Notes: generated by a model not told the origin, from the sequence alone. A DNA stretch of 64,000 nt from Alphaproteobacteria bacterium (GCA_004297545.1 SCTB01000123.1:20630-84629), one strand, 5' to 3'. Shown: positions 11,048 through 59,901, numbered from the stretch's first letter. Program-made: numbers and translations.

Positions 11048-11722
11048 TTGACTGTAAAATTGAGATATTCGATAGCAGCGTTATTGGCTCTACTTCTGCT
11101 GTCTTCAGAAGCATCTGTAGCAGATGAAACGATTTCAGCGAATGAATGCAGCGCTCCTTCATTTAATATGTTTGCCCTTACGCCTATTGATACAATAGTC
11201 GTGATACCGCGTTATGGACCAAATGCTGAACTCTTGCCACATTATCCACTGCAAAAAGCGTCCGCTACAACACATAGGCCAGAGCCCTTCTTTGTTGCCG
11301 TAAAGGAACTTTTTTCAAAGCACCCTGAAATTACCATCCTACCCTTCACTGGAGGCGCCGGGGTGCCGGCTCCCGACGTGACACAGCCTAATGTTCTCAG
11401 CTTGATTTTCGTGTTGTCAGCACGCAAGGAAACAATCGGTAATGAACCCGTTATTGTTGGCTCAGTTTCTGTGCAATTACAAAAGAAGACAGTCGAACCT
11501 GTGCCTTCTCATGGCAGCCCATTCGCCCAGCCCGGCTTACCGTTGTCAGTTGGTACGACGGAAGTATTGACGACTAATGTCGCTCCTATAGCACCCATAA
11601 CATATCCGTTTATTGTCCCCGACAACGTAGAGGAGCTTCAAATAAGAAAATCCGAAGCTGTTAATTCCTTAATCTCTTATCTTCCGGAATATTTTTCGAA
11701 AGTCAGACCGTATAAAAAATAA
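11048..11722 (+). CDS. Secreted hypothetical protein in an AT-richer segment
   Basis: Signal peptide ...SIAALLALLLLSSEASVA/DE. No recognised domain. Composition visibly AT-richer than flanks. TTG start. Confidence 0.5.
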   Translation: MTVKLRYSIAALLALLLLSSEASVADETISANECSAPSFNMFALTPIDTIVVIPRYGPNAELLPHYPLQKASATTHRPEPFFVAVKELFSKHPEITILPFTGGAGVPAPDVTQPNVLSLIFVLSARKETIGNEPVIVGSVSVQLQKKTVEPVPSHGSPFAQPGLPLSVGTTEVLTTNVAPIAPITYPFIVPDNVEELQIRKSEAVNSLISYLPEYFSKVRPYKK

Positions 11723-11859
11723 CGCCTCCATTTTCGTAATAAAATTTATTTCTCCCGCAAATGAAAAGTTCCGTAAATCACCCCTCAGACCATTTGACAC
11801 CGCCCGCCTCCACGCCTAATGATTTGAATCAGGAATTCATTTTTTAGGGGAGTTTCGTC

Positions 11860-12210
11860 ATGAGCATCGGCCAGGTACTGAAAGACACCTTCAACTGGAT
11901 GGCGGAAAAACCCTCGAGCCAGTACACGCTGGGCGGTGAGAAATACTCCGTCAAGTTCAACCGCGCCGCGCGCTTCGTGGAGCGCATCACGACGATCCCC
12001 GCGGTCGTCGCCGGCGTCGGCATCGCCCTGTTTGGCGTTCCGGCGGCCATGGTTGGCGCCGTGCCCTTCGCGGCCAGCGCCTTCGGCGTCGGATTTGCAG
12101 TTGCCGCCTTCGGCAAAGCTTCGGGCATGATCAAGGGCGGCATCACGCACCTGGTCTCGAAAGGCCTTTCCAGCCTCTCGAACCGCCTGTCGCAACCGAA
12201 GCACGCGTAA
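11860..12210 (+). CDS. Hypothetical membrane protein (Gly/Ala-rich TM hairpin)
   Basis: AGGGGAG RBS 7 nt upstream. Two hydrophobic Gly/Ala-rich segments (IPAVVAGVGIALFGVPAAMVGAVPFAASAFGVGFAVAAF). The longer antisense ORF 11785..12540 has shadow-like composition. Confidence 0.5.
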   Translation: MSIGQVLKDTFNWMAEKPSSQYTLGGEKYSVKFNRAARFVERITTIPAVVAGVGIALFGVPAAMVGAVPFAASAFGVGFAVAAFGKASGMIKGGITHLVSKGLSSLSNRLSQPKHA

Positions 12211-12507: not shown

Positions 12508-12516
12508 CAAAACGTC

Positions 12517-12620
12517 GTCATGCCCGCCTTGCGCGGGCATCCGGAGCGTGTCTACGCGTCATATGACTCATATGCGCGGCGGACGCCACGCGCCGGATGC
12601 CCGCGCAAGGCGGGGGTGAC
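12517..12620. repeat. Nested-palindrome intergenic element (GTCATGCCCGC...GCGGGCATCCGG type)
   Basis: gtcatgcccgccttgcgcgggcatccgg ... ccggatgcccgcgcaaggcgggggtgac. Inverted arms, each a hairpin. Confidence 0.8.
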
Positions 12621-12633
12621 GGTAAGGTCTGAT

Positions 12634-19009: not shown

Positions 19010-19648
19010 ATGAAGTCCGTGCTGAAGAAACTTTTCGCGCCGGTCGCCCTTGCGCTCGCCCTGACCGGCTGCGCAGAAAATCCGCAGGATATCGCCGCCA
19101 GGCCCGCGATCGTCGATGCGATGGTCCAGAACTCGCTGGACATCTGCCAGACCGGCCTCGTCAATGCGGACAAGGCGGCCTATGAAACGCGCCTGCGCAC
19201 GGTGCTGAACGATGTGGGTCGCACGTCGAGCCTCAAGGAAATGCAAAATCACAACCTGACCGTCTGCCTCGACCAGCGCCTTGTGCACCAGAATCTCGGT
19301 TTCTGGGACCAGCATGTCAAGGCCGTCATGTACAGGGACGGCGACAAGGGCGGCATCGTCTCCCTCTATGACGACGGCCGCGCGCCGGGTGAAGTCGGCT
19401 TCTGGAGCGCGAAACCAAGCGCCTATAGCTGGGGCGCGCGCGATATCTCGCGCCTGGCGGCAAAATTCCAGGACGGTAAGATTTCAGAAAAGGACAATCT
19501 GATGTATGCCGCAAGGGAAAGCTGCGGCAAGCACTGCTCCGACATCTACTGGCGCACGCCGGCCAGCTTCGACAAGGACACGCAGGCCAAAAATCCGGAG
19601 CTGGCCAAACCGCCCGTGCCGCTGCCCGTGCAGAAACCCGCGTCCTGA
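19010..19648 (+). CDS. Lipoprotein, lineage-specific family (paralog A)
   Basis: MKSVLKKLFAPVALALALTGC lipobox. Shared blocks with 19787..20434: VCLDQRL..QNLG(F/W), GGKGG/GDKGG, FDKDT. AAGGAGG RBS. Confidence 0.7.
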   Translation: MKSVLKKLFAPVALALALTGCAENPQDIAARPAIVDAMVQNSLDICQTGLVNADKAAYETRLRTVLNDVGRTSSLKEMQNHNLTVCLDQRLVHQNLGFWDQHVKAVMYRDGDKGGIVSLYDDGRAPGEVGFWSAKPSAYSWGARDISRLAAKFQDGKISEKDNLMYAARESCGKHCSDIYWRTPASFDKDTQAKNPELAKPPVPLPVQKPAS

Positions 19649-19786
19649 CGCCGGAATAAGGCTGTTTCCGTGATTCGGCCGAAAAGCGAATATCCTATTA
19701 ATACAGTAGGATATTCGTTAACTTTTGCCGGAATTCCCGCCCCCTGCTATCCTGTACCTGTCACGGTAACCACGCGTGGAGCTTGA

Positions 19787-20434
19787 ATGAAGGGCAGCCT
19801 GAAGAAGATATTCGCCATCGCCGCCATGGGTCTTGCGCTTGCGGGATGCGAAAGCAGGATCGACAAGGACCGCAAGGCGGACGTCGCCAGCGACATCATC
19901 CAGACTTCCGTCACCTACTGCCAGCCCGGGCCCGTCAACGGGTCCCCCGCCGATTACAGCCAGCGCCTGCGCAACATCCTGCTCGACAGCTACACCGCCG
20001 ACATGGACGTGCTGAAGCAGAATAATATTGTGGTCTGTCTCGACCAGCGCCTCACCGACCAGAATCTCGGCTGGCTCGATACGCGCATGGAAGGCGTCTA
20101 TTACAACAACGGCGGCAAGGGCGGCGTTCTGACGCTGTGGGACAACGGCAAGCCGCCCAGCTTCTGGTCCAGGGACGCCTCCGACTGGGGCAGTTCCCTC
20201 ATCCATGACTTCGCGAACCAGGTCAGGAAAGGCAAGATCAAGGCGAGCGACGCGCACTGGTACGCCTATGAAGGCTCCTACACGACCAGCTGCGGCCAAA
20301 ACTGCACGACGACCAACTACTATGTAGACTGGGTCAAGGAACAGAAATTCGACAAGGACACGATCCGGAAGAACCAGGCCATCGTGCAGGCCCCGCCGCT
20401 GAAAGCGACAGCGCCCGCCCGGCCGGGAAGCTAG
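19787..20434 (+). CDS. Lipoprotein, lineage-specific family (paralog B)
   Basis: MKGSLKKIFAIAAMGLALAGC lipobox. Same conserved blocks as 19010..19648. Confidence 0.7.
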   Translation: MKGSLKKIFAIAAMGLALAGCESRIDKDRKADVASDIIQTSVTYCQPGPVNGSPADYSQRLRNILLDSYTADMDVLKQNNIVVCLDQRLTDQNLGWLDTRMEGVYYNNGGKGGVLTLWDNGKPPSFWSRDASDWGSSLIHDFANQVRKGKIKASDAHWYAYEGSYTTSCGQNCTTTNYYVDWVKEQKFDKDTIRKNQAIVQAPPLKATAPARPGS

Positions 20435-22519: not shown

Positions 22520-22549
22520 ACGATTAACACTCCTTTTCTCTCTTCTCTC

Positions 22550-22646
22550 GTCACCCCCGCGCAGGCGGGGGTCTGGCCGCGCACCTGCGCGCATTTATAA
22601 ATTGCGGCGTCGCCGCTTGCCGGATGCCCGCCTTCGCGGGCATGAC
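22550..22646. repeat. Full-length bipartite nested-palindrome element (GTCACCCCCGC hairpin - TTTATAAA core - GCCGGATGCCCGC hairpin)
   Basis: gtcacccccgcgcaggcgggggtctggcc...catttataaattgc...gccggatgcccgccttcgcgggcatgac. Same architecture at 44920..45016 and, inverted, at 48668..48765. Confidence 0.85.
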
Positions 22647-22648
22647 GG

Positions 22649-22945
22649 CTATTTGCAAATTTCCTCGTACAGGCCTTTCCAGTCTGGATTCATTCCTTCA
22701 ATCACCCTCATTTTCCATGGCCTGTTCCATTTTTTCAGTCTCTTCTCCCGCGCAATTGCTGTTTTGGGATCGGAATAAATTTCATAGTAAACGAGCTTGT
22801 TTATTCCGTACTTTTTTGTAAACCCATCTGCAACAGCGTTTTTGTGCTCCCAGGTTCGTTTTACGAGGTTAGATGTAATGCCCACGTAGAAAGTGCTGTT
22901 TCTGTCTTTTGCCAGTATATAAACATAGAATTGATCTTTTGCCAT
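22649..22945 (-). CDS. Small stand-alone GIY-YIG (URI-domain) nuclease family protein
   Basis: FYVYILAKDRNSTFYVGITSNLVKRTWEHK...AIAREKRLKKW gives the GIY..YIG, R and E motifs. 98 aa. AT-richer than flanks. Confidence 0.85.
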   Translation of the reverse strand: MAKDQFYVYILAKDRNSTFYVGITSNLVKRTWEHKNAVADGFTKKYGINKLVYYEIYSDPKTAIAREKRLKKWNRPWKMRVIEGMNPDWKGLYEEICK

Positions 22946-22975
22946 GCGTAGTCCTTTATACGCGCTATCGCGCTG

Positions 22976-23003
22976 GCCGGATGCCCGCCTTCGCGGGCAT
23001 GAC
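22976..23003. repeat. Half copy of the bipartite element; 29-bp perfect direct repeat of 22619..22647
   Basis: gccggatgcccgccttcgcgggcatgacg is identical at 22619 and 22976, in the same orientation, bracketing the GIY-YIG gene. A tttata core remnant precedes it. Confidence 0.85.
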
Positions 23004-23008
23004 GCCGA

Positions 23009-23599
23009 TCAGGGATTCAACCTTGTCATTTCCCACCCGTCTTTAAATCGGGAAAACAGGAAGCGGTCGTGCAACCGGCCTTCGCCCTCGAGCCAGAATT
23101 CTATTTTATCCGGCGCAAGGACGAAGCCGCCCCAGTGCGGCGGGCGGGGTATTTCCTGCCCCTTGAATTTCTGGGAAAAAAGCCGCACGCGTTCTTCCAG
23201 TTCGTCCCGGGTTTCCAGGGGCTCAGACTGGCGGCTGGCCCAGGCGCCGAGGCGGCTTAAGATATGCCGCGTCTTGAAATAGGCGTCCACCGCCCAGGCG
23301 GGAACTTGAGTCACCTGGCCCTCCACCCGCACCTGCCGGTGCAGGGTCTTCCAGTGGAAGCACATGGCGGCGCTTTGGTTATGTGAAAGTTCTTTCGCCT
23401 TGCGACTTTCCAGATTCGTGTAGAAGCGGAAACCTTCCTTATCCACGCCCTTGAGCAGCACCATGCGCACCGATGGCCTCCCTTCCGGCGAAACCGTAGC
23501 GAGCGCAACGGCTTCAGGGTCATTGGGTTCGGAAACGGAGGCCTCGGTCAGCCATTCCTTAAATAATTCAATCGGGTCCTGGGAGCGCAGGATTTCCAT
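23009..23599 (-). CDS. pdxH: Pyridoxamine 5'-phosphate oxidase
   Basis: RMVLLKGVDKEGFRFYTNLESRKAKEL, IEFWLEGEGRLHDRFLFSR, C-terminal RLNP. Confidence 0.9.
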   Translation of the reverse strand: MEILRSQDPIELFKEWLTEASVSEPNDPEAVALATVSPEGRPSVRMVLLKGVDKEGFRFYTNLESRKAKELSHNQSAAMCFHWKTLHRQVRVEGQVTQVPAWAVDAYFKTRHILSRLGAWASRQSEPLETRDELEERVRLFSQKFKGQEIPRPPHWGGFVLAPDKIEFWLEGEGRLHDRFLFSRFKDGWEMTRLNP

Positions 23600-26978: not shown

Positions 26979-27082
26979 GGTGGTTACCCCCTGCTATCTT
27001 TGAATATTAGAGCATTTTTTCTTCAGGTGAAATGCGCGCCTTTCCCCTCTCCCTTAAGGGCATCTCTGAGAAAGGCAGGTGT

Positions 27083-27230
27083 CTCCTCTCCCCCGTTCGC
27101 GAAGCGAATGGAGGGAGAGGATTAAGGTGAGGGGGTGTTTCAGCAAAAACAGCCAGTTGTATTGTTGCACCGCCCCCTCACCCTGACCCTCTCCCTCCCG
27201 CTTCGCGGGGGGAGAGGGGATAAATGGCTT
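27083..27230. repeat. 'Empty' pair of G/C-rich hairpinned inverted-repeat arms (same superfamily as the cargo-carrying elements)
   Basis: The left arm ...ctctcccccgttcgcgaagcgaatggagggagaggattaaggtgagggggtg and the right arm caccgccccctcaccctgaccctctccctcccgcttcgcggggggagagg... are reverse complements separated by only 40 bp. Confidence 0.75.
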
Positions 27231-31353: not shown

Positions 31354-32442
31354 TTACTTCGGCTGCGGCGGTTTCGCGGCGGCCGCCGGCTTGATGCGGT
31401 GCGCGAGATTGTATTCGGCGACTGCTTCCTTCACACGCTTCAGCGTATCCGCGAAATCGCCCTTATGCAGGATGCCGATGCCTCCGGCCTTCACCCAAGC
31501 GTCGATATTCGCCTGACGATCGTCGATCAGCACCTTGTCGGGGCGCGCCAGCAGCATCTTGTCCTTCGAACGGCAGACGATGATATCCAGCAGCGCGAAC
31601 TTGTTGCGGCCGAAGTTCTTGGTCCATTCCGCCGGGCCCTCGAAGCCGTCGGGATGCGGCACGGGGCCGGTCAGGAACCGCACCGCGCCTTCCTGCTTCA
31701 CCGCATCATAGAATTCCTTTGCGCCTTTATAGGCCGGGATGCCCTTCCACCATTTGACGTCAAGCTCGTCCCATTTCTCCTTACCCTGCGCGTCCAGTTT
31801 TCCTTCCGCCTCGAGATGGCCCTGGAAGTCCGCCAGCACGCCGTTGGTGCCGATGAATATCTCCACTGCGCCGGTCGGCTTCGCGACGAACGGCTTGGGC
31901 GGGTTGCGGCGGTATTCGTCCTGCGCCTCGCGGATGCGCTTCAGCGTATCGGCGTAATCGCCCGAGTGAAGAATGCCGATGCCGCCGGCCGCGACCCACT
32001 GGTCGATGTTCTTCTGGCGATCATCGACGAGAATGTGGTTGGGACGCGCCAGCAGGTTCTTGGCTTCGGCGCGCGCGAGGAGAAGATCAAGCAGCCCGAA
32101 GGTGCTGCCGCGGAAATTCTTGATCCATTCCGCCTTGCCGCGGAAACAGCCGACGTTGAGGATCGGCGCGCTCAGCTTGCGCGTGCGGCCGAGCTTGCGG
32201 AGCTTGGCGTCGAATTCCTTGGCCCCCGCGTAGGCCGGCATCGTGCTCCACCAGGCGTAGTCAAGCTCTTCCCACTTCGGCTGGCCTTTTTCGTTGAGCT
32301 TGTCATGGGCTTTCGCATGAGCGTCAAAGTCGGTCAGGACGCCGTCCATGTCGCAGTATATCTCGAACTCGGTATCGTCTTTCGGCGCTTTGCTTTTCTT
32401 TTTTGTCTTGTCCTTGAACTGCTTTTTCGGGCTTTTCGACAT
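31354..32442 (-). CDS. Tandem-duplicated 5'(3')-deoxyribonucleotidase-like HAD protein (first copy intact, second copy with degenerate motif I)
   Basis: Copy 1: EIYCDMDGVLTDFDAH. Copy 2: EIFIGTNGVLADFQGH. Both end ...DDRQ.NID.WV.AGGIGILH.GD(Y/F)ADTLKR(I/V).EA. GAGG RBS before ATG 32440-32442. C-terminus ...KPPQPK. Confidence 0.6.
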   Translation of the reverse strand: MSKSPKKQFKDKTKKKSKAPKDDTEFEIYCDMDGVLTDFDAHAKAHDKLNEKGQPKWEELDYAWWSTMPAYAGAKEFDAKLRKLGRTRKLSAPILNVGCFRGKAEWIKNFRGSTFGLLDLLLARAEAKNLLARPNHILVDDRQKNIDQWVAAGGIGILHSGDYADTLKRIREAQDEYRRNPPKPFVAKPTGAVEIFIGTNGVLADFQGHLEAEGKLDAQGKEKWDELDVKWWKGIPAYKGAKEFYDAVKQEGAVRFLTGPVPHPDGFEGPAEWTKNFGRNKFALLDIIVCRSKDKMLLARPDKVLIDDRQANIDAWVKAGGIGILHKGDFADTLKRVKEAVAEYNLAHRIKPAAAAKPPQPK

Positions 32443-35757: not shown

Positions 35758-36396
35758 TTATTTCGGCTGCGGCGGCGCGGGCGGTTTCGGCTGCGGGCGG
35801 CGCGCGATTTTATCGTTCAGATCGTCGATATCGACTTCGGCAATAATGCCGCGCGCCTTGTATTTGGGTATCTTCCAGAATTCGCGCAGGACCGCGCTGC
35901 GGAAACTGCGGTCGGAAAACCATTTGTCGCGATCCGCGCCGAAAGTATTGGGCGCCGTGAACATCTTTGTGACCGACGGCCAGTGTTTTTCCAGCGTCAT
36001 CAGGAAGCGTCGCGAGCCATGTATCTGCCCGATGCCCAGCACGGAATGGATTTTGCCGAACTCCTTCGTATTTTTCAGGAGCTGCATCGTTTCGATCACA
36101 TTCTCGCCCGTGTTCGTGGCCTTATCCTCGACGCGGATGGCGCTTTCCGGCACGCCCAGCGCGACGAGCCTGTCATGCATCTGATGGCATTCGAACGTGC
36201 CCTTGCTGGTCGGCACGCCGCCCGAGACGACGATCAGCGGAAAATAGCCCTTGTGATATAAATCCGCCGCGCGCTCCGCCAGCGCATCCGCCTGCTCGCC
36301 GCCGAACAGCAGGCACAGGTCCGCCTTCGCGAGACGCGTTTCGACGAGCATGTACTCGCCAACTTTTTTCAGGAATTCTTCCGTTAACTTTTTCAT
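35758..36396 (-). CDS. YdcF/ElyC (DUF218) family protein
   Basis: LIVVSGGVP...GVPESAIRVEDKATNTGENV signature. C-terminal tail ...RRPQPKPPAPPQPK. Confidence 0.7.
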   Translation of the reverse strand: MKKLTEEFLKKVGEYMLVETRLAKADLCLLFGGEQADALAERAADLYHKGYFPLIVVSGGVPTSKGTFECHQMHDRLVALGVPESAIRVEDKATNTGENVIETMQLLKNTKEFGKIHSVLGIGQIHGSRRFLMTLEKHWPSVTKMFTAPNTFGADRDKWFSDRSFRSAVLREFWKIPKYKARGIIAEVDIDDLNDKIARRPQPKPPAPPQPK

Positions 36397-36767
36397 TTAA
36401 TTTCCTTTGCCGAAGGCAAAGTCGTCAGTCCCCTCTCCCTCTGGGAGAGGGCTAGGGTGAGGGTACTTACAACACCCTCCAGATTGTCCTCCACTTCATT
36501 ATTCCAGAAGCGGATAACTTCATACCCAAGCTTATTAAGATATTTTGTGCGCGCCGCATCCTTCTTGCTCTCGCAATGTTGCCCGCCATCAACTTCAACG
36601 ATCAGTTTAAGTTCGAGGCATACGAAATCGGCGATGTAAGGACCAATAGGAAGCTGGCGGCGGAAGATGTACTTCAAATGATCATTGCGAAGGCAATTCC
36701 ACAACAGACACTCCGCATCTGTCTGCTCCCGTCGTAGCTTCCGCGCTCTTTGAACAGACTTTGCCAT
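36393..36767 (-). CDS. DUF559 (Vsr-like fold) endonuclease-domain protein
   Basis: RARKLRREQTDAECLLWNCLR...FRRQLPIGPYIADFVCLELKLIVEVDGGQH...KTKYLNKLGYEVIRFWNNEV. Start ATG 36765-36767. The C-terminal about 20 aa is read-through of the left arm, and the stop overlaps the ATG of 35758..36396. Confidence 0.8.
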   Translation of the reverse strand: MAKSVQRARKLRREQTDAECLLWNCLRNDHLKYIFRRQLPIGPYIADFVCLELKLIVEVDGGQHCESKKDAARTKYLNKLGYEVIRFWNNEVEDNLEGVVSTLTLALSQRERGLTTLPSAKEIK

Positions 36768-36850
36768 TTTACGTTCTTCCGTAGGTAGTACCCTCACCCT
36801 AGCCCTCCCCCAGAGGGGGAGGGGACTAACGACTTTCGCTACGCGAAAGG
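36404..36850. mobile_element. Inverted-repeat-bounded cassette carrying a DUF559 endonuclease gene (no transposase)
   Basis: The 64-bp arms at 36404-36467 and 36787-36850 are reverse complements: cctttgccgaaggcaaagtcgtcagtcccctctccctctgggagagggctagggtgagggtact versus cctttcgcgtagcgaaagtcgttagtcccctccccctctgggggagggctagggtgagggtact. Differences are compensatory within the local hairpins. The interior is AT-richer. Confidence 0.75.
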
Positions 36851-36879
36851 AAATATAATCCTTAACTTGCAGCCCTGAC

Positions 36880-38688
36880 TTACTTGCCCTGCGTCTTGGG
36901 CAGGTCGAGCTTGATATGCACGTCACGCAGCTGGTGCGCCTCGGCGGTCGAGGGCGCGCCCATCATCAGGTCTTCGGCCTGCTGGTTCATCGGGAAGGCT
37001 ATGACCTCGCGGATGTTCGGCTCCTTCGCCAGCATCATGATAATGCGGTCGATGCCGAAGGCGCAGCCGCCATGCGGCGGGGCGCCCAGCTTGAAGGCGT
37101 TGAACATGCCGCCGAATTTTTCCTGCACCGCGCCCTTCGGATAACCCGCGATCTCGAAGGCCTTTTCCATCGCATCGGGATTGTGGTTGCGGATGCCGCC
37201 GGAGCACAGTTCCAGCCCGTTCGCGACGCAGTCGTACTGGGTCGCCTTGATTTTCAGGGGCTCCTGCGTCTGCAGCGCCTTCAAGCCTCCCTGCGGCATG
37301 GAGAAGGGGTTGTGGGAGAAATCGACCTTGCCCGTCTTGTCGTTGATCTCGAACATCGGGTAATCGACAACCCAGCAGAACTTGAAGCAGTTCTTCTCGA
37401 TGATATCCATTTCCTCGGCGATCTTCGTGCGCGCCTTGCCGGCGAGCGATGCAGCCTTGTCGGCCATATCGCAGGCGAAGAAGACGGCGTCGCCGCCTTC
37501 GGCGCCGGTCGCCTTGCGCAGTTCTTCCTGCGCGGCAGCGGGCAGGAACTTCGCGATCGGGCCCTTGCCTTCGTTGCCTTCAAAAAGGACATAGCCGAGG
37601 CCGGGAGCGCCTTCGCTCTGCGCCCAGCTGTTCAGCTTGTCGAAGAAACTACGCGGACGGTCGGAGACTTTCGGGGCGCGGATGGCGCGGACGACGCCGC
37701 CCTTGTCGATGATGCCCTTGAAGGCCCTGAATTCGACATCGGGACGCGCAAAGACTTTTGTTACATCGACGATGATGAGAGGGTTACGCAGGTCCGGCTT
37801 GTCGTTGCCGTATTTCAGCATGGATTCATCGTAAGGGATGCGCACCCAGGGCGCGGGCGTGACGCTGTATTTCGTGCCGGTGAATTCGGAGAATTCCTCG
37901 AACACGCCGCCGATGACTTTTTCCATCACCGTGAAGACGTCTTCCTGCGTCACGAAGGACATTTCCATGTCGAGCTGGTAGAACTCGCCCGCGGTGCGGT
38001 CCGCGCGTGCGTCTTCGTCGCGGAAGCAGGGCGCGATCTGGAAGTATCTGTCGAAGCCCGACATCATCAACAATTGTTTGAACTGCTGCGGAGCCTGCGG
38101 CAGCGCGTAGAACTTGCCGGGATGCAGGCGCGACGGCACGAGAAAGTCGCGCGCGCCTTCCGGCGACGACGCGGTCAGGATCGGCGTCGTGAATTCGCGG
38201 AAGCCCTGTTCGACCATGCGGCGGCGCATGGAATAAACCACATCGCTGCGCAGCACGATATTGCGGTGGATGACGTTGCGGCGCAGGTCGAGGAAGCGGT
38301 ATTTGAGGCGTACTTCCTCGCCGTAAGGTTCGTCCGAGTTCACCTGCAGCGGCAGCATCTCGGTCACTTCGGAGGAGAGAAGCTCCATCGACTTCGCGTC
38401 CAGCTCGATCTCGCCCGTGGGCAGCTGCTTGTTCACGGTTTCGGGCGTGCGCATGAGCACCTCGCCCGTAATGCAGATGACGTTCTCGAGCTTCAGCTTC
38501 TCGATCTCTTTCGCGATGGGATTGTTCTGCTTCACCACGACCTGTGTCAGTCCGTAATGGTCGCGCAGGTCGACGAACAAAACGCCGCCATGGTCGCGCA
38601 CGCGGTGAATCCACCCCGAGATGCGAACGGTCTTGCCTTTGTCCCCCGCCCGGAGCTGGCCGCAGGTATGGGTGCGATAGGCATGCAT
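36880..38688 (-). CDS. aspS: Aspartate--tRNA ligase (probably non-discriminating)
   Basis: [13 protein letters not shown] start typical of bacterial AspRS. Class II motifs ([30 protein letters not shown]). Start set to ATG 38686-38688. Confidence 0.95.
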
Positions 38689-39006
38689 AAGAGAATCCCT
38701 TTGAATTTCCTTGGTCTGGGTGGCGTGAGCGTGCATAAGAGAATCCCTCTGATTTCCGTCCAAAAATGGCCTATATTTTTAGCATAAAACAGTGCCGGGA
38801 ATAAACTTCGCGATTTAAGCGGCTGTTATTATACATAATTAACCAGCGGCGCCCGGGGAATGCGGGGACGGTTCCTGTTCAAAATTCCTTAAGGAAATCA
38901 GGTTATGTTTCTTTTATTGCACCTTTGACCGTCCTCCGCAAAGATAACGGGTAGGATGAGACTTTCGGAGGCGCCCATCGCCTCCCTTAAACAGGGGTTT
39001 GAAAAG

Positions 39007-43386: not shown

Positions 43387-43477
43387 CGTACTTTTCCTCA
43401 CCCTCTGGGTGAGGAAGGGGCCCGCGCCGAAGGCGTGGGAAGGTGGGGGTACTTTGTGCAGGGATTGGAATGATTGA

Positions 43478-43918
43478 ATGACGACGATAAGTAAAGAGCT
43501 GAAGGAGCTATTTGCGAAGATCAATTCGACAGCGGATTTTTGTTACGTTGAATTCTCAGATGTCAATACGACGAATGCCTTGGGTGAGAACGCCCTTCAT
43601 ATTGCTGTTAGATGGGGCGAGATTGACGCCGTAAAACTGCTGATTTCGTCGGGAGCCGACATTAACAAACACGGTGAATACGGATACACCCCTCTTCATT
43701 ATGCAGCCGAATGCGGCTACCAAGAGATAGTAAAACTGCTACTTGATTCAGGGGCAAACCCGTTCGCCCGCACCGAAGGAGATATACCATCTACATTGGC
43801 ACGATTTAAAGACAATAAGACCATTTGTGATTTGTTAGATGAGTACATGCGTAAGTCGCCGTACCGGCCCAAAGGGTGGATATTCAGCGGAGAAGACCTT
43901 ATAAACCGGAAAGACTAA
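43478..43918 (+). CDS. Small ankyrin-repeat protein
   Basis: GENALHIAVRWGEIDAVKLLISSGADINKHGEYGYTPLHYAAECGYQEIVKLLLDSGANP. Confidence 0.8.
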   Translation: MTTISKELKELFAKINSTADFCYVEFSDVNTTNALGENALHIAVRWGEIDAVKLLISSGADINKHGEYGYTPLHYAAECGYQEIVKLLLDSGANPFARTEGDIPSTLARFKDNKTICDLLDEYMRKSPYRPKGWIFSGEDLINRKD

Positions 43919-43946
43919 ATCGTGTAAAAATGGCGGAGCTTGAAAC

Positions 43947-44300
43947 ATGGATGTAAAAGTTATCACACTCCCCACCGATCAGATTACAGACTGGAATAGC
44001 TTTCATTCCGTGTGTAAGGACGTTTTTGGTTTTCCAGACTTCTACGGCAGGAATATGAATGCTTGGATTGACTGCATGACCTCCGTCGATTGCGCGGAGG
44101 ACGGCATGACGACTGTAAATGTTGCTGATGGAGGGCTATTAGTTATCAGAGTCGACAATGCAGCAGAATTCAAAAAGCGTTGTCCGGAAGAGCATGAAGC
44201 ATTGATAGAGTGTGCAGCTTTCGTAAACTATCGGCGCATAGACGTTAAGGGGCAGCCTGTTTTGGCGCTCATGTTAATAGGCGATTATCCGAACCCATAG
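43947..44300 (+). CDS. Barstar-like ribonuclease-inhibitor family protein
   Basis: I..W..FH....DVFGFPDFYGRNMNAWIDCM matches the barstar N-terminal signature (FP.YYG.N.DA..D). 117 aa. Confidence 0.55.
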   Translation: MDVKVITLPTDQITDWNSFHSVCKDVFGFPDFYGRNMNAWIDCMTSVDCAEDGMTTVNVADGGLLVIRVDNAAEFKKRCPEEHEALIECAAFVNYRRIDVKGQPVLALMLIGDYPNP

Positions 44301-44379
44301 AATTCATTGCACGGAGTACCCCCACCTTCCCGCGCTTCGCGCGGGCCCCTTCCTCCCTCAAAGGAGAGGAGAAAAAATT

Positions 44380-44810: not shown

Positions 44811-44919
44811 GGTATATCTCCCCGTATTTGGTATCGGAGTACAATGCCGTGAGTCGCGGATTCTGTCAAATGTGAAATTTTAAGAGGTTGGTTTTGTTTG
44901 ATTATTTTCAAAAATTTAC

Positions 44920-45016
44920 GTCACCCCCGCGCAGGCGGGGGACTGGCCGCCGCCGCAAGGCGGCCTTTATAAAGGCGCTTCGCGCGGGCCGGATGCCCGC
45001 CTGAAGCGGGCATGAC
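44920..45016. repeat. Full-length bipartite nested-palindrome element
   Basis: gtcacccccgcgcaggcgggggactggcc...cctttataaagg...gccggatgcccgcctgaagcgggcatgac. Ends 6 nt before the priA stop. Confidence 0.85.
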
Positions 45017-45021
45017 GAAGG

Positions 45022-47235
45022 TTAAAAGAAACTCTGCGGGTCGATATCGACCTTCAGTTGCAATGACGACGGCACTTTGACCGCAGCCAGCCATTCGGCC
45101 AGGTATTTCTGCAGCGGAATCGCCTTGTTCGCCTTGATAAGGAACCGGCGGCGGTGACGGCCGCGCAGGTAGGCCATGGGCGCCGGCGCGGGGCCCAGCA
45201 CGCGGATGTCGTCATACCTCGGCGCTTTCTGCGCAATCGTGCGGCAGAAGAGGTCGAGCTTCATTTCGTCCGCACCCGCGAGAATAAGCGCAGCTAACCT
45301 CCCAAACGGCGGCATCCCGGCCTTTTCGCGTTCGCGCGCTTCCACAGCCAGAAAATCATCGCGGTCGTTTTTCGCCAGCGCGCGTATCACGCTTTGCTCG
45401 GGCATATAGGTCTGCAGATAGACGCGTCCCGGCAGTTCGCCGCGGCCCGCGCGGCCCGAGACCTGGTGCAGCAGCTGAAACGTGCGCTCGCCCGCCCTTA
45501 AATCGCCGCCGGATAATCCCAAATCCGCATCGATCACGCCCACGCAGGTCAGCGCCGGGAAGTGGTGGCCTTTCGCGATGATCTGCGTGCCGATAATCAC
45601 GTCATGCTTGCGATCTTCGATATCGCGTACCGCGCCGCGGATCATATTGGGGCTGGTGATGACATCGCTGGCGAGAATAAACGTGCGCGCGGTCGGCATC
45701 AGCGCCGCGACTTCTTCCTGAATCCTTTCCACGCCGGGGCCGCAGGCGGCGAAACTGTCTGCTTCGTTGCAAGAGGGGCAGGTTTTCGGCACCGGCTGTA
45801 AAAACCCGCAGTGGTGGCATTGCAGGCGCGAAAATCTTTTGTGCTCCACCAGCCAGGCGCTGCACGACGGGCACTGGAAACGAAAGCCGCAGGTGCGGCA
45901 CAGCGTTAAGGGCGCATAGCCGCGGCGGTTCAGGAACAGCAATGACTGTTCGCCCGCCGCGAAAGTTTCCTGCAGCGCTTTTTCCAGCACCGGCGCGATA
46001 AATTTCCCGCGCGCGGGCAGCGCGGATTTCAGGTTGATGACATGGATAGCGGGCATTTTCGCGCCGGCATGCCGCGCGGGGAGTTTCAGGTAATGGTATT
46101 TTCCCTGTTGCGCGTTCACCATGGTTTCCAGCGACGGCGTCGCGGAGACGAGGACGACCGGAAAGCTCCCCAGTCGCGCGCGCACGATCGCCATATCGCG
46201 CGCATTGTACAGCACGCCTTCTTCCTGCTTGTAGGACGCGTCATGTTCTTCATCGACCACAATCGCGCCGAGATTGGCGAAGGGCAAAAACAATGCCGAG
46301 CGCGCGCCGACCACGACTTTGGTTTTTCCTTCCGCCACGCCGGCCCAGGTCACGCGACGCTGCGCCGTGGGTACTTCGGAATGCCAGAGCGCGGGCGCGG
46401 CGCCGAAGCGGCGTTCGAACCGCTCGAGGAACTGGGCGGAGAGGGAAATTTCAGGCAGCAGGATCAGCGCCTGCCGTCCCTGCCGTATCGCCTCCGCCAC
46501 GGCTTCAAAATAAACTTCAGTCTTGCCGGAACCCGTCACGCCATCCAGCAGCACGGTGGAAAATTTGTTTTCGCCCGCCAGCTTGCGCAAGGCATCGGCG
46601 GCGGATTGCTGGTCTTTCGAAAACGACAGCGCGCTGTCGCCCGTGTCAACCTCGCGGCAGGGCGCTGGCGCGGAAACCGGGCGTATCATCAATTGCCCCG
46701 CCGCCGCCATGGAGCGGATGAGGGCCGCGCTGCAGCCCGCTTCCCGCGCGATATCGACGGCGCGGCGCGGCAGCCCGTCCTTCAGCAGGTTGACGATTTT
46801 CTGGCGCGCGGCGGGAAGTTTTTCGGGGATGTTTTCGTTCAGCGTATAGGCATTGGCCGATTTGGGCGGCTGCAGCGCTTCGGGTGCGCTTAAGGACATC
46901 TTGAGCACCGAGCCGAGGTCGGACATGGTGTAACGCGCGACCCATTCGAGGAACTGCCGGTGCGTCTGCGGCATCGCCTCGAAGGCATATTTCTGCTGCA
47001 CATGCTTGAGTTTCGCGGGGTCCACATTATCTTTGCCATCCAGCGTCCAGACGACGCCGGGCGTGTCCCGCCTGCCAAGGGGAACCCTTACATAATCTCC
47101 GGGCTGCGCTTCCATGCCGTCGGGCAGGAGGTAATCGTAAGCCCTTGATAAAGGATAGGGGACCAGCACCTGCGCCCGTCTGCCGGATTTGGGCGTTTCG
47201 CCCGCTATTAAAAGGCTAGATTGGGACATGGCCAT
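45022..47235 (-). CDS. priA: Primosomal protein N' (replication restart helicase PriA)
   Basis: Walker A LLDGVTGSGKTEVY, DEEH box (VVDEEHD), Cys-rich zinc region (CRTCGFRFQCPSCSAWLVEHK...CHHCG). 737 aa. Confidence 0.95.
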   Translation of the reverse strand: MAMSQSSLLIAGETPKSGRRAQVLVPYPLSRAYDYLLPDGMEAQPGDYVRVPLGRRDTPGVVWTLDGKDNVDPAKLKHVQQKYAFEAMPQTHRQFLEWVARYTMSDLGSVLKMSLSAPEALQPPKSANAYTLNENIPEKLPAARQKIVNLLKDGLPRRAVDIAREAGCSAALIRSMAAAGQLMIRPVSAPAPCREVDTGDSALSFSKDQQSAADALRKLAGENKFSTVLLDGVTGSGKTEVYFEAVAEAIRQGRQALILLPEISLSAQFLERFERRFGAAPALWHSEVPTAQRRVTWAGVAEGKTKVVVGARSALFLPFANLGAIVVDEEHDASYKQEEGVLYNARDMAIVRARLGSFPVVLVSATPSLETMVNAQQGKYHYLKLPARHAGAKMPAIHVINLKSALPARGKFIAPVLEKALQETFAAGEQSLLFLNRRGYAPLTLCRTCGFRFQCPSCSAWLVEHKRFSRLQCHHCGFLQPVPKTCPSCNEADSFAACGPGVERIQEEVAALMPTARTFILASDVITSPNMIRGAVRDIEDRKHDVIIGTQIIAKGHHFPALTCVGVIDADLGLSGGDLRAGERTFQLLHQVSGRAGRGELPGRVYLQTYMPEQSVIRALAKNDRDDFLAVEAREREKAGMPPFGRLAALILAGADEMKLDLFCRTIAQKAPRYDDIRVLGPAPAPMAYLRGRHRRRFLIKANKAIPLQKYLAEWLAAVKVPSSLQLKVDIDPQSFF

Positions 47236-48642: not shown

Positions 48643-48667
48643 GTCCAGTTATAATCACTTTATAGGC

Positions 48668-48765
48668 GTCATGCCCGCGAAGGCGGGCATCCGGCACACG
48701 GCAACGCCGCATTGATAAAAGCGCACTTTCGTGCGCTGCCAGACCCCCGCCTTCGCGGGGGTGAC
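48668..48765. repeat. Full-length bipartite nested-palindrome element (inverted orientation)
   Basis: gtcatgcccgcgaaggcgggcatccggc...attgataaaagc...ccagacccccgccttcgcgggggtgac. Confidence 0.85.
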
Positions 48766-48780
48766 GTCGAGGGGAAAGAC

Positions 48781-51597: not shown

Positions 51598-52401
51598 TTA
51601 TGCCTCCTTCAGATCAAGCACGACCGGCACATGGTCGGAGGGTTGCGTCCAGCCGCGCACGTCGCGCAGAATCTGCTGTTTCTGCAATGCGGGTTTTAGT
51701 TTCTGCGTGACCCAGATGTGGTCGAGACGCCGGCCCCGGTCCGATGTATCCCAGTCGGCCGCGCGATAGCTCCACCACGAATAGAGTTTTTTATCTTCCG
51801 GCACGAAATGCCGTACGCCGTCGACCCAATCGACCCCTTCATAAAACCGCTTGAATTTCTCGACCTCGATGGGCGTATGGGAAACAACCTTCAGCATCTT
51901 CTTGTGGTCCCAGACGTCGTTTTCGAGCGGCGCGATGTTGAAATCGCCGACCGCCACCATCGGCGCCTTTGCCGAACGCTCTTTCGGGAACCATTTCGCG
52001 AGCTCATCGACGAAATCAAGCTTGTGCCTGAATTTTTCATTCGCCACCGGGTCCGGCTCGTCGCCGCCCGCTGGAACGTAAATGTTATGCAGCTCGAACG
52101 CGCCGGTCTTCGCCTTCACTTTGGCCGAGATATGCCGCATGTCGTTCTTGCCGCAGCGTTGATGCGTCTGCCTGTCATCCAGCGGAATTTTTGAAAAAAT
52201 CGCGACGCCGTTATAGCCCTTCATGCCCGCGAAATGATGATGCGAAAAACCCGCCGAGGTCAGCGGCTCGACCGGAAAAAATTCGTCAGGCGTCTTGGTT
52301 TCCTGCAGGCACAAAATATCCGGCTTCAGCCGGTCGGCCACTTTCAGCACAAGGTCTATCCGCAGGCGGACGGAATTGATGTTCCAGGTGACAAGGCGCA
52401 T
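51598..52401 (-). CDS. xthA: Exodeoxyribonuclease III
   Basis: MRLVTWNINSVRLRIDLV...PDILCLQETK, ...GDFNIAP..., ...SDHVPVVLDL. Confidence 0.9.
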   Translation of the reverse strand: MRLVTWNINSVRLRIDLVLKVADRLKPDILCLQETKTPDEFFPVEPLTSAGFSHHHFAGMKGYNGVAIFSKIPLDDRQTHQRCGKNDMRHISAKVKAKTGAFELHNIYVPAGGDEPDPVANEKFRHKLDFVDELAKWFPKERSAKAPMVAVGDFNIAPLENDVWDHKKMLKVVSHTPIEVEKFKRFYEGVDWVDGVRHFVPEDKKLYSWWSYRAADWDTSDRGRRLDHIWVTQKLKPALQKQQILRDVRGWTQPSDHVPVVLDLKEA

Positions 52402-52716
52402 GTTTATTCCAGCGTTGAATCGGTTTTTGATAATACGGAAAAAGCGGGCAGCAAGGGAAGCGAAAAATAACCCCGTTAATTCTCAGCTATTTCATTGAGA
52501 TAGACGAAAATGCCCCGTCAACAAGCAATCCAGAGGCCCGATTTTCGGGTGAAACGGGCTGAAACGGCAGAGTGCCCGGTTTCAAAAACTTTTCCCCCGG
52601 GCCACCGGTGTTTTTCCGCATAAAAGCAACCTCTTCGCCCTGCGCGTTACAGGGCGTTACACAGAATTACATTGACCGCAGCGGCAGCCCTCGGTCAGAC
52701 TTGTTTTTAAGGCTGA

Positions 52717-53343
52717 GTGAACGACATAACTAGAAAGGCGGCCTTGAAAATGACGCAGTTCGCATTGAAAATTTTCAGGTTTTTCGTTTTCATCGGCCTT
52801 CTTGCGCTTATGGCGCCGCGCGCCCAGGCCGCCGACATCCCCGCCTATGCCGGCCCCGGGTCGGAAGACCTCACGAAAACCATCACGTCCGGCCCCAGCC
52901 CGTCTGCGTCGGAGGAAGTGCCGCTCGACAAGCCGAACATCGAGATCACCGCGCTGCTGCCCTGGGTCGCCGATACGGTGACCGGCTCCCTGAACCTGCA
53001 GCCGAAGGATTACAAGGAAACCCTGCATAATGCGGCGCGCAGCTTCACGCGCGATGGCTGGGTGGATTTCACGCGGATGCTGCAGAAGTACCGCGTCATC
53101 ACGAACCTGCAGCAGAACGACCAGACGGTCTCGGTCGTGCCCGGCTCGCCGTCGCTTTCGCGCGAGGATATCGAAGACGGCATCTACCGCTGGAGCATCA
53201 CGATGCCCGTCACCATCAACTATTTCAGCGAGAAGGATTCCCACACCGACTACATCATCCTCAACCTCATGGTCGTTCGCGTCCCGCGCAAGGACAACAT
53301 CCTGGGCATCAGCATTTCGAAGTGGCTGGAGGCGGAGAGGTAG
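52717..53343 (+). CDS. IcmL/DotI-like protein (type IVB secretion-associated family), orphan
   Basis: N-terminal TM/signal segment, then W..........DY......A...FT.DGW.DF...L...........Q.VS.VPG.P......I.DG.Y.W.I.MPV.I.Y.........I.L.L.V.RVP......LGISI..W. This follows the IcmL/DotI core pattern as I recall it. Start is GTG 52717 or ATG 52750. Confidence 0.5.
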   Translation: MNDITRKAALKMTQFALKIFRFFVFIGLLALMAPRAQAADIPAYAGPGSEDLTKTITSGPSPSASEEVPLDKPNIEITALLPWVADTVTGSLNLQPKDYKETLHNAARSFTRDGWVDFTRMLQKYRVITNLQQNDQTVSVVPGSPSLSREDIEDGIYRWSITMPVTINYFSEKDSHTDYIILNLMVVRVPRKDNILGISISKWLEAER

Positions 53344-53355
53344 CATCACTCTTCT

Positions 53356-53456
53356 GTCATGCCAGCGAAAGCTGGTATCTCTGAAATTTAAAATCATCCC
53401 CGCTCCGCGGGAATGTCCCTATTAAATAGAGCGATGCCAGCTTTCGCTGGCATGAC
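53356..53456. repeat. Nested-palindrome intergenic element (GTCATGCCAGC type)
   Basis: gtcatgccagcgaaagctggtatctct ... agagcgatgccagctttcgctggcatgac, with a central hairpin tccccgc-tcc-gcgggaa. Confidence 0.8.
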
Positions 53457-53485
53457 AATATATCCGGGGTGAAGTTCGGGATAGC

Positions 53486-55560: not shown

Positions 55561-56243
55561 CTCTCCTCCCCTTTGGGGGAGGAAGGGGCCCGCACGAAGT
55601 GCGGGAAGGTGGGGGGTACTCCGTGCAACAGAGTGGCTGGTTAGAAGTTTAAATCACGACTGAACACGAATGCTCATGAGTCTTCTGAGTGTCAATGCTT
55701 CTTCCGAAAAATCGAGCTCATTTTGCGCTTTTTGGCCCGTGCAATATTAGCAACCACGCTTCGTACAGCTTCGCCAATGTGCAGGGCAATAAACTACGTG
55801 CCCATTGTCTTTTGTGTTTTTTAGTATCGTTGAAGTTTAACTCCTCGACAAACGAAACATCGATTGCATTTTTTAAATCATCATTACCGTTTTCGTAGGC
55901 CCACTCTGCCAACTTATACGCTTTTGTCACTTGCTCCCGGTCACCAGAATCTATCAGCTGTTGCACTAATCTGCGAAAGACCGCCATTTCAAAATGAAGT
56001 AAACCTTGTTCCTTGTTGATTTCCAGCTCAACTGCGGGAAATGTTGCCTTTAGCTGTTTGAGAAATTCACTCCTATGGACTTTTGTCATTTTTTCCGGCG
56101 CCCCCGCCCGTTTTCCACAATCTACTTTATCATTCATTCATTTTTATTCGTAGTTCAAACTATTCACTATCTATGTAACTTCACAGAGTACCCCCACCTT
56201 CCCGCACTTCGTGCGGGCCCCTTCCTCCCCCAAAGGGGAGGAG
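55561..56243. mobile_element. Inverted-repeat-bounded cassette carrying one AT-rich orphan gene (no transposase)
   Basis: Left arm: ctctcctcccctttgggggaggaaggggcccgcacgaagtgcgggaaggtggggggtactccgtg. Reverse complement of right arm: atctcctcccctttgggggaggaaggggcccgcacgaagtgcgggaaggtgggggtactctgtg. Only 2 differences. Fills the gap between two convergent stops. Confidence 0.8.
55718..56089 (-). CDS. Hypothetical helical protein (123 aa), cassette cargo; immunity-protein-like by context only
   Basis: MTKVHRSEFLKQLKATFPAVELEINKEQGLLHFEMAVFRRLVQQLIDSGD...NAIDVSFVEELNF. Markedly AT-rich. An alternative upstream ATG at 56137 exists. Confidence 0.5.
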   Translation of the reverse strand: MTKVHRSEFLKQLKATFPAVELEINKEQGLLHFEMAVFRRLVQQLIDSGDREQVTKAYKLAEWAYENGNDDLKNAIDVSFVEELNFNDTKKHKRQWARSLLPCTLAKLYEAWLLILHGPKSAK

Positions 56244-56247
56244 ATTC

Positions 56248-59118: not shown

Positions 59119-59499
59119 GTGGCGATTACAATCGAAGAGCTGGACGGAAAATACGAAGTTTTCTCGCAGAAGATCGGGGGCGGGACGAACGTGCCGGACG
59201 GCGACGGCACCACCGAGATTCGCAACGGCCTGACCTACCGCAAGGACAAGAACGGCTTCATCTGGGAGAGCGCCTTCACCATCGCGGGCGCCGACCAGGT
59301 GCAGATGGAATCGACCATCGACCCCAGCCACGCCGGCGCCGACAAGTTCATCAAGGATGAAAAGGGCAACCTGACCAAGGGCATGCTCACCTACCGCGCG
59401 ATACTGAATGCGACGCGCGACAACGGCAAGCTGGTTTTAAAGGGCGATATCAACCACGGCGGCGAGATCACGCGCCTGACGCTGAAGAAAATTTCTTAA
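59119..59499 (+). CDS. Hypothetical ~126-aa protein, tandem paralog A
   Basis: Start placed at GTG 59119 so that VAITIEELDGKYEV... aligns with MGIKLEELDGRYEI... of the downstream paralog. Shared YRKD.NGFIWES.F.I.G.D, ST(I/L)DPS, FIKD, LVL(K/R)G(D/E)I.HG. Confidence 0.5.
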   Translation: MAITIEELDGKYEVFSQKIGGGTNVPDGDGTTEIRNGLTYRKDKNGFIWESAFTIAGADQVQMESTIDPSHAGADKFIKDEKGNLTKGMLTYRAILNATRDNGKLVLKGDINHGGEITRLTLKKIS

Positions 59500-59517
59500 A
59501 AGGGTATTTTAGGCGCT

Positions 59518-59901
59518 ATGGGCATCAAGCTCGAGGAACTGGACGGAAGATACGAAATCCGCTCGGAGACGAGCGACGGCGGCCCCTATCGCATCAACGG
59601 CGACGGCGTCACCGAAGTGAAAGACGGCCGCACCTACCGCAAGGACCAGAACGGCTTTATCTGGGAGAGCCGGTTCAGCATCTCGGGCAAGGACAAGATA
59701 ATGCTGGAATCCACGCTCGACCCCAGCCTCGCCGATGAAGACTTCTTCATCAAGGACAACAAGAACAACCTGACGCGCGAGAAAGTCACCTACAAGGGCG
59801 AGCTTATCGTGCGGGAAGAGCGCGGACGCCTGGTGCTCCGCGGCGAGATAAAACACGGGATCGTGACCACGCGCATCACGATGACCAGGATCAACGCTTA
59901 A
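59518..59901 (+). CDS. Hypothetical 127-aa protein, tandem paralog B
   Basis: MGIKLEELDGRYEIRSETSDGGPYRINGDGVTEVKDGRTYRKDQNGFIWESRFSISGKD.... By-eye similarity to paralog A over the full length is clear. Confidence 0.6.
   Translation: MGIKLEELDGRYEIRSETSDGGPYRINGDGVTEVKDGRTYRKDQNGFIWESRFSISGKDKIMLESTLDPSLADEDFFIKDNKNNLTREKVTYKGELIVREERGRLVLRGEIKHGIVTTRITMTRINA

Follow-up and report, generated by a model that had tools for sequence, protein, structure and literature searches.

BoxC was noted in Escherichia coli in the 1990s and was found again as PIT elements in 2000 (PMC4666352). Under the name TM, Holder et al. (2015, PMC4666352) list 23 copies in strain MG1655 and record the motif in more than 260 genomes. 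The E. coli sequence folds into a stable purine-motif triplex in vitro, as followed by circular dichroism (CD) and nuclear magnetic resonance (NMR); it is also an obstacle to polymerase in vitro, and the loci that it marks show unusual rearrangement between strains (PMC4666352). No function has been assigned to it; transposases and integrases were never found near the motif, which is treated there as an orphan repeat with neither an associated gene nor a mobility function (Holder et al., PMC4666352). Here, we describe a 64,000-nt stretch of DNA from Alphaproteobacteria bacterium (GCA_004297545.1 SCTB01000123.1:20630-84629, hereafter the window), in which a small nuclease gene of the DUF559 family lies between two inverted copies of this motif, in the space between the host genes aspS and DUF218. 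We read the locus as one copy of a widespread composite element, consisting of a YcjD-like DUF559 gene between inverted BoxC/PIT/TM motifs, in which the nuclease would be the element's own enzyme, and we give this reading a probability of roughly 50%.

The copies in the window share several traits with those described by Holder et al. (PMC4666352): they are intergenic and multi-copy, occur solo or as head-to-head pairs, sit at variable loci, and keep the triplet rules. They differ in that the motif pairs here form the arms of gene cassettes, with a specific nuclease family nested inside, and in that the window contains composite forms with a GC hairpin as second loop. Arms are also about 25 times denser here than in E. 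coli (8 in 64 kb versus 23 in 4.6 Mb).

The closest analogy for the architecture as a whole is the REP/REPIN-RAYT system. In both cases, an enzyme gene is placed between inverted copies of a hairpin repeat, and the repeat is dispersed as singlets and inverted doublets. The enzymes differ, however: RAYT is an HUH/Y1 transposase, whereas DUF559 is a PD-(D/E)XK hydrolase and thus cannot cut and rejoin DNA by itself. The repeats differ as well, since the arm described here is a triplex former without the GTAG signature of REP and is nearly invariant across phyla, whereas REPs are lineage-specific.

The arms contain the BoxC/PIT/TM motif

A repeat search and alignment delimit two inverted arms of 73 nt that are 86% complementary and spaced by 319 nt (Table 1). 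The preliminary description of the locus had reported shorter, 64-nt arms with stem-preserving paired differences, and this held up well. Those arms show eight differences, six of which make up three compensatory stem pairs (GC to CG with their partners in the outer hairpin, hp1, and T to C with A to G in the inner hairpin, hp2), one lies in the hp1 loop, and one in the linker. Both arms retain all of their stem pairs (16/16 in each), an outcome that was reached by chance in 3 of 1,000,000 simulations of eight random substitutions (~3e-6), and each arm folds into two local hairpins (folding z -3.8 to -4.7). The interior is AT-richer, as had also been stated (GC 0.476 in the 319 nt versus 0.589 in the window).

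Each arm is a composite of the outer hairpin hp1, a linker, and the known BoxC/PIT triplex motif. The published TM consensus, CCCTCNCCC-N3-6-GGGNGAGGG-N3-GGGNGAGGG (PMC4666352), is matched exactly by both arms, with 0 matches in 100 shuffles, and the arm core is therefore the published intrastrand-triplex motif and not a new repeat. Under the purine-motif triplet rules (G*G:C, A*A:T, T*A:T, with the third strand antiparallel to the purine half-stem), the left arm has 9/9 allowed triplets and the right arm has 8/9. When the G-rich tail was compared with the purine strand of its own hairpin across 439 arms, 94.6% of the triplets were allowed and 68% of the arms were perfect; in a control that paired hairpins with the tails of arms having a different purine strand, these values were 85.4% and 12.8%. 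Across arms, the third strand co-varies with its own hairpin, in agreement with a triplex constraint. A G-quadruplex reading of GGGAGAGGG-CTA-GGGTGAGGG was considered and is held to be less likely, being superseded by the published triplex data and by this third-strand covariation.

The linker (GTCGTCAGT / ACTGACGA) also belongs to the element; E. coli doublets have the identical GGGGACTGAC outside the motif. The outer hairpin, on the other hand, is a local feature of the aspS-DUF218 spacer, where it occurs as a single copy, with nothing else, at an empty relative (L157). At occupied sites hp1 stands on both sides of the unit in inverted orientation, with reverse-complementary loops (GAA/GTA versus TTC/TAC), and its two compensatory alleles are spread over both positions and over lineages. 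Of the compensatory substitutions proposed earlier, the pairing as such is confirmed, and the difference in hp1 represents two alleles of a local host hairpin that is also present at empty sites.

Whalefall-1 (RF01762) of Rfam was examined as another possible identity. The arms score 17.5-17.8 bits against it (36429-36464 and 36790-36825; gathering threshold 37) and miss the middle hairpin, and the composite arms gave no match to the Whalefall-1 covariance model. Membership was therefore rejected. This orphan metagenomic RNA has the same CUCUCC/GGAGAG stem and AGGGUGAGG tail, and it may be a variant of the TM DNA motif.

The enclosed gene encodes a YcjD-like nuclease

The 124-aa product of the enclosed gene is identical to an NCBI protein from a metagenome-assembled genome (P0001, 'Alphaproteobacteria bacterium') and matches Pfam DUF559 (PF04480) with an E value of 8.3e-38 (129 bits versus a cut-off of 20.6). 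It aligns over its full length with the NCBIfam YcjD model NF007294 at 83.5 bits, below the equivalog cut-off of 218, and is thus a YcjD relative and not an equivalog. The closest protein by sequence is Neisseria gonorrhoeae NGO0050 (3HRL; E 3e-24, structural TM-score 0.89). An AlphaFold model (predicted local distance difference test score, pLDDT, 85.7) was compared by Foldseek, which returned 3HRL followed by the catalytic domain of I-Bth0305I (3R3P, E 1e-4), with Vsr in seventh place (E 5e-3); the nearest functionally characterized structural neighbor is therefore this homing endonuclease. Residues D47, E58, D60, Q63, and H64 are invariant in 19 homologs. We are very confident of the identity of both the arms and the gene.

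As described beforehand, the start and core of the gene lie between the arms, the unit lies between aspS and DUF218 and contains no transposase, and the reading frame leaves through the left arm to end in an overlap with the downstream gene. More precisely, 19 nt separate the ATG from the aspS-side (5') arm, the 3' arm contributes the last ~24 codons of the frame (STLTLALSQRERGLTTLPSAKEIK), and the TGA overlaps the DUF218 ATG as ATGA. No promoter or terminator signal was found on the gene strand between aspS, DUF559, and DUF218, and in the wider set of DUF559 loci introduced below the upstream neighbor is co-oriented with the nuclease gene in 58/75 cases (crude gene call). Read-through from aspS is the probable mode of expression of the gene, with probable translational coupling to DUF218. 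The idea that the arm supplies the DUF218 ribosome-binding site was rejected, since L157, which is empty, likewise has AGGA ahead of DUF218.

In vivo work on a DUF559 protein is confined to Caulobacter VsrA, an SOS-induced nuclease that damages DNA when the solitary cytosine methyltransferase ScmA is absent (PMC12907096). VsrA, YcjD, NGO0050, and the protein described here belong to one family, and E. coli ycjD likewise lies beside a TM motif. What differs is that the proposed methylation-tied mismatch-repair role of VsrA has no counterpart in the evidence from this unit. Among the open reading frames (ORFs) of the window, searched with Pfam, no dcm-type or cytosine-5 methyltransferase gene adjoins the unit; a nearby UPF0020-family methyltransferase gene is also present at empty sites; and the protein has no Pfam match to Vsr (PF03852). 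PADLOC returned nothing meaningful for membership in a defense system.

Nuclease and arms occur together across phyla

A profile scan of species-representative genomes returned at least 588 DUF559 relatives, and the best 80 of these, from many phyla, were analyzed with a structural arm detector that calls only the known arms within the window. Inward-pointing arms were present on both sides of 58 genes, on one side of 17, and on neither side of 5, at a background arm density of 0.23/kb. The general arm order is pyrimidine half-stem, loop, purine half-stem, optional GC hairpin, and G tract. At DUF559 genes, the G tract is directed inward, 7-25 nt lie between the 5' arm and the ATG, and the reading frame extends into the 3' arm. 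The frame in which the 3' arm is read differs between DUF559 subfamilies, so conservation acts at the DNA level and not on a peptide, and the arm is more conserved than the gene that it encloses. In Desulfobacterales units, a split into type A and type B motifs marks the 5' and 3' arms.

Gene and arms also appear to travel together. An ACTCCCC... arm class tracks one DUF559 clade (70% identity within the clade, 50% to others) through five lineages that span Binatia, Nitrospira, Chloroflexota, and Gammaproteobacteria, and the coincidence of arm class and protein clade indicates that the two move together between lineages. Furthermore, 83 of the 117 arms that do not themselves flank DUF559 share the class of the local DUF559 arms, versus 37 +/- 6 after permutation (reached in 0/2000 permutations). 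All of these arms are found no more than 4 kb from the gene, however, and local duplication may have produced them. A match between the genomic repeat class and the copies around the gene is likewise a trait of REP/REPIN-RAYT systems. The motif and the domain are each known, and their pairing appears to be undescribed: a link between DUF559 or ycjD and the BoxC/PIT/triplex motif was not found in the searchable literature, older subscription papers being out of reach.

The position of the arms relative to the gene bears on the possibility that they act in cis, as insulators or as expression control of a potentially toxic nuclease, and not as mobility signals. They could then be hairpins that mask a ribosome-binding G tract, hairpins that stabilize messenger RNA, or barriers to replication or transcription. 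In some subfamilies, the ATG follows the G tract by 7 nt, so that the third strand would double as a Shine-Dalgarno sequence, and the hairpins are kept by compensatory change, both of which fit such a role. We nevertheless hold it to be very improbable, as the motif is abundant without any attached gene, PIT elements have neither promoter nor terminator activity in vivo (as summarized in PMC4666352), and the gain and loss of the unit as a block as well as its co-transfer across phyla would be left unexplained.

The unit is gained and lost as a block

To compare orthologous sites, DUF218 relatives were used as anchors (percentages in this section are DUF218 identity to the window). The unit is present in L002 (85%) and, with an intact gene, in L153 (80%). 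The site is empty in L157 (89%), where a 34-nt gap holds hp1 only, in L158 (78%), which has an unrelated 100-nt spacer, and in L156 (56%), where the flanking genes are 1 nt apart. On two further contigs no gene was called, in an 83-nt gap (P0122, 89%) and in a 25-nt gap that was counted as empty (P0136, 71%). L154 (65%) retains a remnant, with only linker and hp1 beside other repeats; a relative of a second, REP-like hairpin family of the window (described below) fills the gap there. Another organism has a homologous unit in its glmU-glmS interval, where the arm core is base-for-base identical and the protein only 66% identical. In addition, one assembly of the same species ends within the arm, a kind of break that repeats produce.

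Examination of the interval downstream of aspS, as had been suggested, thus uncovered empty, occupied, and remnant states. The unit is not fixed and syntenic in relatives, and its arms are not confined to this locus but belong to a large repeat family (8 arms in the window and many more in other genomes). We conclude with considerable confidence that gene and arms are gained or lost as a block and that the unit is a discrete insertion.

This polymorphism resembles that of free-standing homing endonuclease genes, especially of the Vsr-like I-Bth0305I family, in which a small nuclease gene of related fold is present or absent at a conserved intergenic site. Unlike those, the unit does not reside in an intron, intein, or phage, and it has its own flanking repeats. 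The earlier proposal of a nuclease-bearing, homing-like cassette gains from the insertion polymorphism and the homing-endonuclease-like fold, whereas homing into an identical empty allele is unsupported. The empty aspS-DUF218 sites carry no triplex motif, so a cycle in which the empty allele is cut and the gene copied by homology is not evident, and simple homing into a pre-existing doublet does not explain the insertion.

Sister cassettes with other cargo

Apart from the DUF559 unit, the window contains two further cassettes, B and C, and a gene-less head-to-head doublet with cassette-arm geometry (Table 1). All six cassette arms have the inner end GGTGRGGGTAC in common. Cassette B is absent from the syntenic relative L002. 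The corresponding L002 site has a hairpin that might have been a clean empty target, but its folding is weak (z -0.7), and it was therefore treated as a decayed remnant. A third copy of the cassette C arm is found at 44319-44372, and a degenerate motif fragment lies just upstream of the doublet, at ~27045-27060. In other genomes (L077 3290-3923, L089 2318-3813, and L119 2028-3868), the cargo between head-to-head motif pairs comprises a ParE/RelE-like toxin gene and genes for nucleotidyltransferases (MNT), one of them with an HEPN-like partner. This cargo is of toxin-antitoxin or immunity style, like the cargo in the window.

Such variable small cargo between short inverted termini, with an AT-rich interior and no internal transposase, recalls miniature inverted-repeat transposable elements (MITEs) and mobile insertion cassettes. 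The arms would then be terminal inverted repeats, and a transposase encoded elsewhere would move DUF559 and the other cargo in trans, as the preliminary description had offered as one option. The conserved inner end, the existence of several cassettes with different cargo, and the break of contig assemblies at the arm are in line with this. Nevertheless, no target-site duplication flanks cassettes B and C, and together with the lack of any known transposase association of the motif this makes a mobile insertion cassette unlikely. No transposase was seen in or beside any inspected unit, no insertion sequence (IS) with matching ends is known, most copies are solo and not paired, and the termini are triplex motifs that stay near-constant across phyla, unlike the termini of IS. 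As the arm core is the TM motif and not an IS-type terminal repeat, mobilization in trans was not borne out, and we consider it improbable. An integron gene cassette (attC) was rejected as well: the arms come as inverted pairs, the cassettes stand singly at scattered positions, and there is no integrase among the window ORFs examined.

Motifs without the nuclease

Seen from the motif, the association with DUF559 is much weaker. A metagenome scan with the arm terminus of this lineage (64 loci, 53 assessable arms) yielded 45 solo arms, 3 doublets, 3 arms enclosing other cargo, and 2 arms (one unit) flanking DUF559, and none of 71 arms at 67 loci in contigs of a viral collection was accompanied by DUF559. 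A strong association on the gene side and a weak one on the motif side form an asymmetry like that of REP repeats versus RAYT genes. In one metagenome (L165-L228; contigs LXNJ01... and MKWU01...), ~20 copies of a single triplex-motif subfamily have extended conserved flanks (...ctgATCCCCTCTCCCTACAAGGGGAGAGGGCTAGGGTGAGGGTACtgcggggg...) and look like a high-copy dispersed element. Another locus (L190) has a window-type arm with linker and no DUF559, on a very short contig.

In E. coli, the 3' end of ycjD, the stand-alone DUF559 gene of K-12, runs into a degenerate motif, and ~170 nt beyond the gene lies CCCTCGCCCCTCTGGGGAGAGGGTTAGGGTGAGGGG, which is TM#9. This copy is listed in Table 1 of Holder et al., where ycjD is unmentioned (PMC4666352). 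Between ycjD and TM#9 (L160; NC_000913 1,351,030-1,351,840), we observed a fragment that duplicates the ycjD 3' end (ggagacggtgctggagaatattc...), which points to either an old tandem copy or a conversion event here. The TM motif occurs in each of 5,426 complete E. coli genomes (median, 19 places). Depending on the lineage, the sapF-fabI interval is occupied by ycjD or by the eefRABCD operon, and lineages with eefRABCD are reported to lack ycjD (PMC12817139); the motifs therefore persist without the gene. Of the five MG1655 doublets, four are head-to-head, with 16-27 nt between the motifs; a conserved spacer sequence is common to the three whose spacers measure 26-27 nt, and each doublet always combines one type A and one type B motif. 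The notion that gene-less doublets are DUF559 units after gene deletion is unproven, as the E. coli doublet spacers have no significant similarity to ycjD (p > 0.1).

These observations are the natural ground of the main rival explanation, in which DUF559 is a passenger or host gene, i.e., a repair- or restriction-type nuclease similar to VsrA that does not act on the arms and is simply the commonest retained cargo. The triplex motifs would be unstable DNA prone to recombination, and errors of host replication, among them polymerase stalling and template switching, would allow them to spread and to capture genes. The polymerase block and the unstable loci mentioned at the outset agree with this, as do the motif pairs around unrelated cargo (ankyrin/Barstar, DUF7674, ParE-like, and MNT/HEPN), the large excess of motifs over DUF559 genes, their persistence where ycjD is reported absent, and the behavior of VsrA, which damages DNA only when ScmA methylation is lacking. 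Chance capture, however, would hardly yield so regular a geometry, with arms at 75/80 genes, the G tract turned inward, the ATG at a short, confined distance from the 5' arm, and the coding region continuing into the 3' arm, nor would it account for gene and arm class being inherited together across phyla. The lack of a linked cytosine methyltransferase at this unit and of a Vsr domain match in the protein also stand against it. On balance, we regard this explanation as rather unlikely.

The nuclease as the proposed enzyme of the element

We therefore return to the composite element, in which DUF559 would relate to the motif as RAYT genes relate to REP/REPIN sequences, or as an autonomous element relates to its MITEs. 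The DUF559 nuclease would be the element's own enzyme and would recognize and nick the folded arms, be it as hairpin or as polymerase-stalling triplex. New copies of the unit, or of its arms alone, would then arise at other sites as the host repairs the break or switches templates, with solo motifs and doublets representing non-autonomous or decayed forms. By analogy with these systems, action of the nuclease on the arms is conceivable at somewhat less than even odds. The broader proposal, that DUF559/YcjD nucleases are the missing cognate enzymes of BoxC/PIT repeats and form a cross-phylum, REPIN/RAYT-like selfish system whose pairs carry small immunity or toxin cassettes, is more tentative still. 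In such a system, a PD-(D/E)XK nuclease and a DNA triplex would take the place of the HUH transposase and the simple hairpin.

Several points weigh against the composite element with its own enzyme. No DUF559 protein is known to be tied to the motif biochemically, and to our knowledge a hydrolytic nuclease alone cannot transpose DNA. Most motifs lie far from any DUF559 gene, as seen in the metagenome census and, more strictly, in the viral collection, and in E. coli they persist where ycjD is reported absent. The empty aspS-DUF218 sites are without the motif, so that homing into an existing doublet offers no explanation, and the proximity of the arms used in the concordance test to their gene weakens that test. 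Moreover, the E. coli TM copies are largely fixed in position (Holder et al., PMC4666352), and VsrA behaves as a methylation-linked nuclease of repair or restriction type (PMC12907096).

Other features of the window

Coordinates are collected in Table 1. A second, unrelated family of REP-like hairpins (CGTCAYSCCCGC...GCGGGSRT...) occurs as singlets and inverted doublets at seven sites. At 7394-7491, two inverted 43-nt copies lie 12 nt apart (88% complementary) and form a palindromic element of another sequence family. Long direct-repeat pairs are found at 31411-32152 (241 nt, 71%) and 59198-59774 (178 nt, 76%), probably within genes. The AT-rich patches at 9600-12000 and 52400-52800 (GC 0.46-0.50) contain no triplex-motif arms by the detector. 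L002 has a gene for a 97-aa GIY-YIG nuclease (19610-19903), with no triplex-motif arms detected on its flanks, that is absent from the matching part of the window. A ~43-nt unit recurs at 48-nt spacing (38665-38755) at the start of aspS or just upstream of it, owing to which the listed aspS ORF begins with a repeated peptide.

Table 1. Positions of the DUF559 unit, its neighbors, and the other repeat features, counted from the first nucleotide of the window.
Feature	Coordinates	Strand	Basis or remarks
DUF559/YcjD-like predicted PD-(D/E)XK nuclease, likely coding sequence, 124 aa	36393..36767	minus	Pfam DUF559; P0001
5' arm (relative to the minus-strand gene)	36787..36859	minus	repeat search, folding, TM consensus match
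5' arm, hp1	36833-36849	minus	outermost part, read from outside in
5' arm, linker	36825-36832	minus	between hp1 and TM motif
5' arm, TM motif	36791-36823	minus	pyrimidine half-stem, loop, purine half-stem, loop CTA, third-strand G tract 36791-36799
5' arm, GTA	36788-36790	minus	inner end after TM motif
3' arm	36395..36467	plus	repeat search, folding, TM consensus match
3' arm, hp1 / linker	36405-36421 / 36422-36429	plus	outer parts
3' arm, TM motif	36431-36463	plus	hairpin 36431-36451, loop CTA, G tract 36455-36463
3' arm, TAC	36464-36466	plus	inner end after TM motif
DUF218/YdcF-family host gene, downstream	35758..36396	minus	start overlaps DUF559 stop; anchor for site comparison
aspS host gene, upstream	36880..38763	minus	ORF as listed, true start probably further in; co-oriented with DUF559
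Cassette B	43391..44375	plus	composite TM arms ~43391-43460 and ~44308-44375, GC hairpin as second loop; GC 0.457
Cassette B cargo	43478-43918; 43947-44300		ankyrin; Barstar-family
Cassette C	55562..56244		54-nt composite TM arms 55562-55615 and 56191-56244, 100% complementary; GC 0.419
Cassette C cargo	55718-56137	minus	DUF7674 gene
Gene-less head-to-head TM doublet	27085..27216		cassette-arm geometry; -47.7 kcal/mol, z -8.5
REP-like hairpin family	12516-12621, 22549-22652, 22971-23009, 44919-45023, 48662-48771, 53355-53457, 63567-63598		

Implications

BoxC/PIT/TM sequences have been described only as in vitro triplex formers that mark unstable loci, and the nesting of DUF559 between them offers a candidate partner enzyme. 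DUF559/YcjD is in turn a very common nuclease family whose function is undefined, so the nesting joins its question to that of the motif. As ycjD lies beside TM#9 in E. coli K-12, the relation between YcjD and TM can be addressed in a model organism. Should YcjD not act on TM, the regular architecture would need another explanation. Should it do so, the REP/RAYT kind of repeat-enzyme partnership would have a second example, with a different mechanism, and an intrastrand DNA triplex would gain a biological role.

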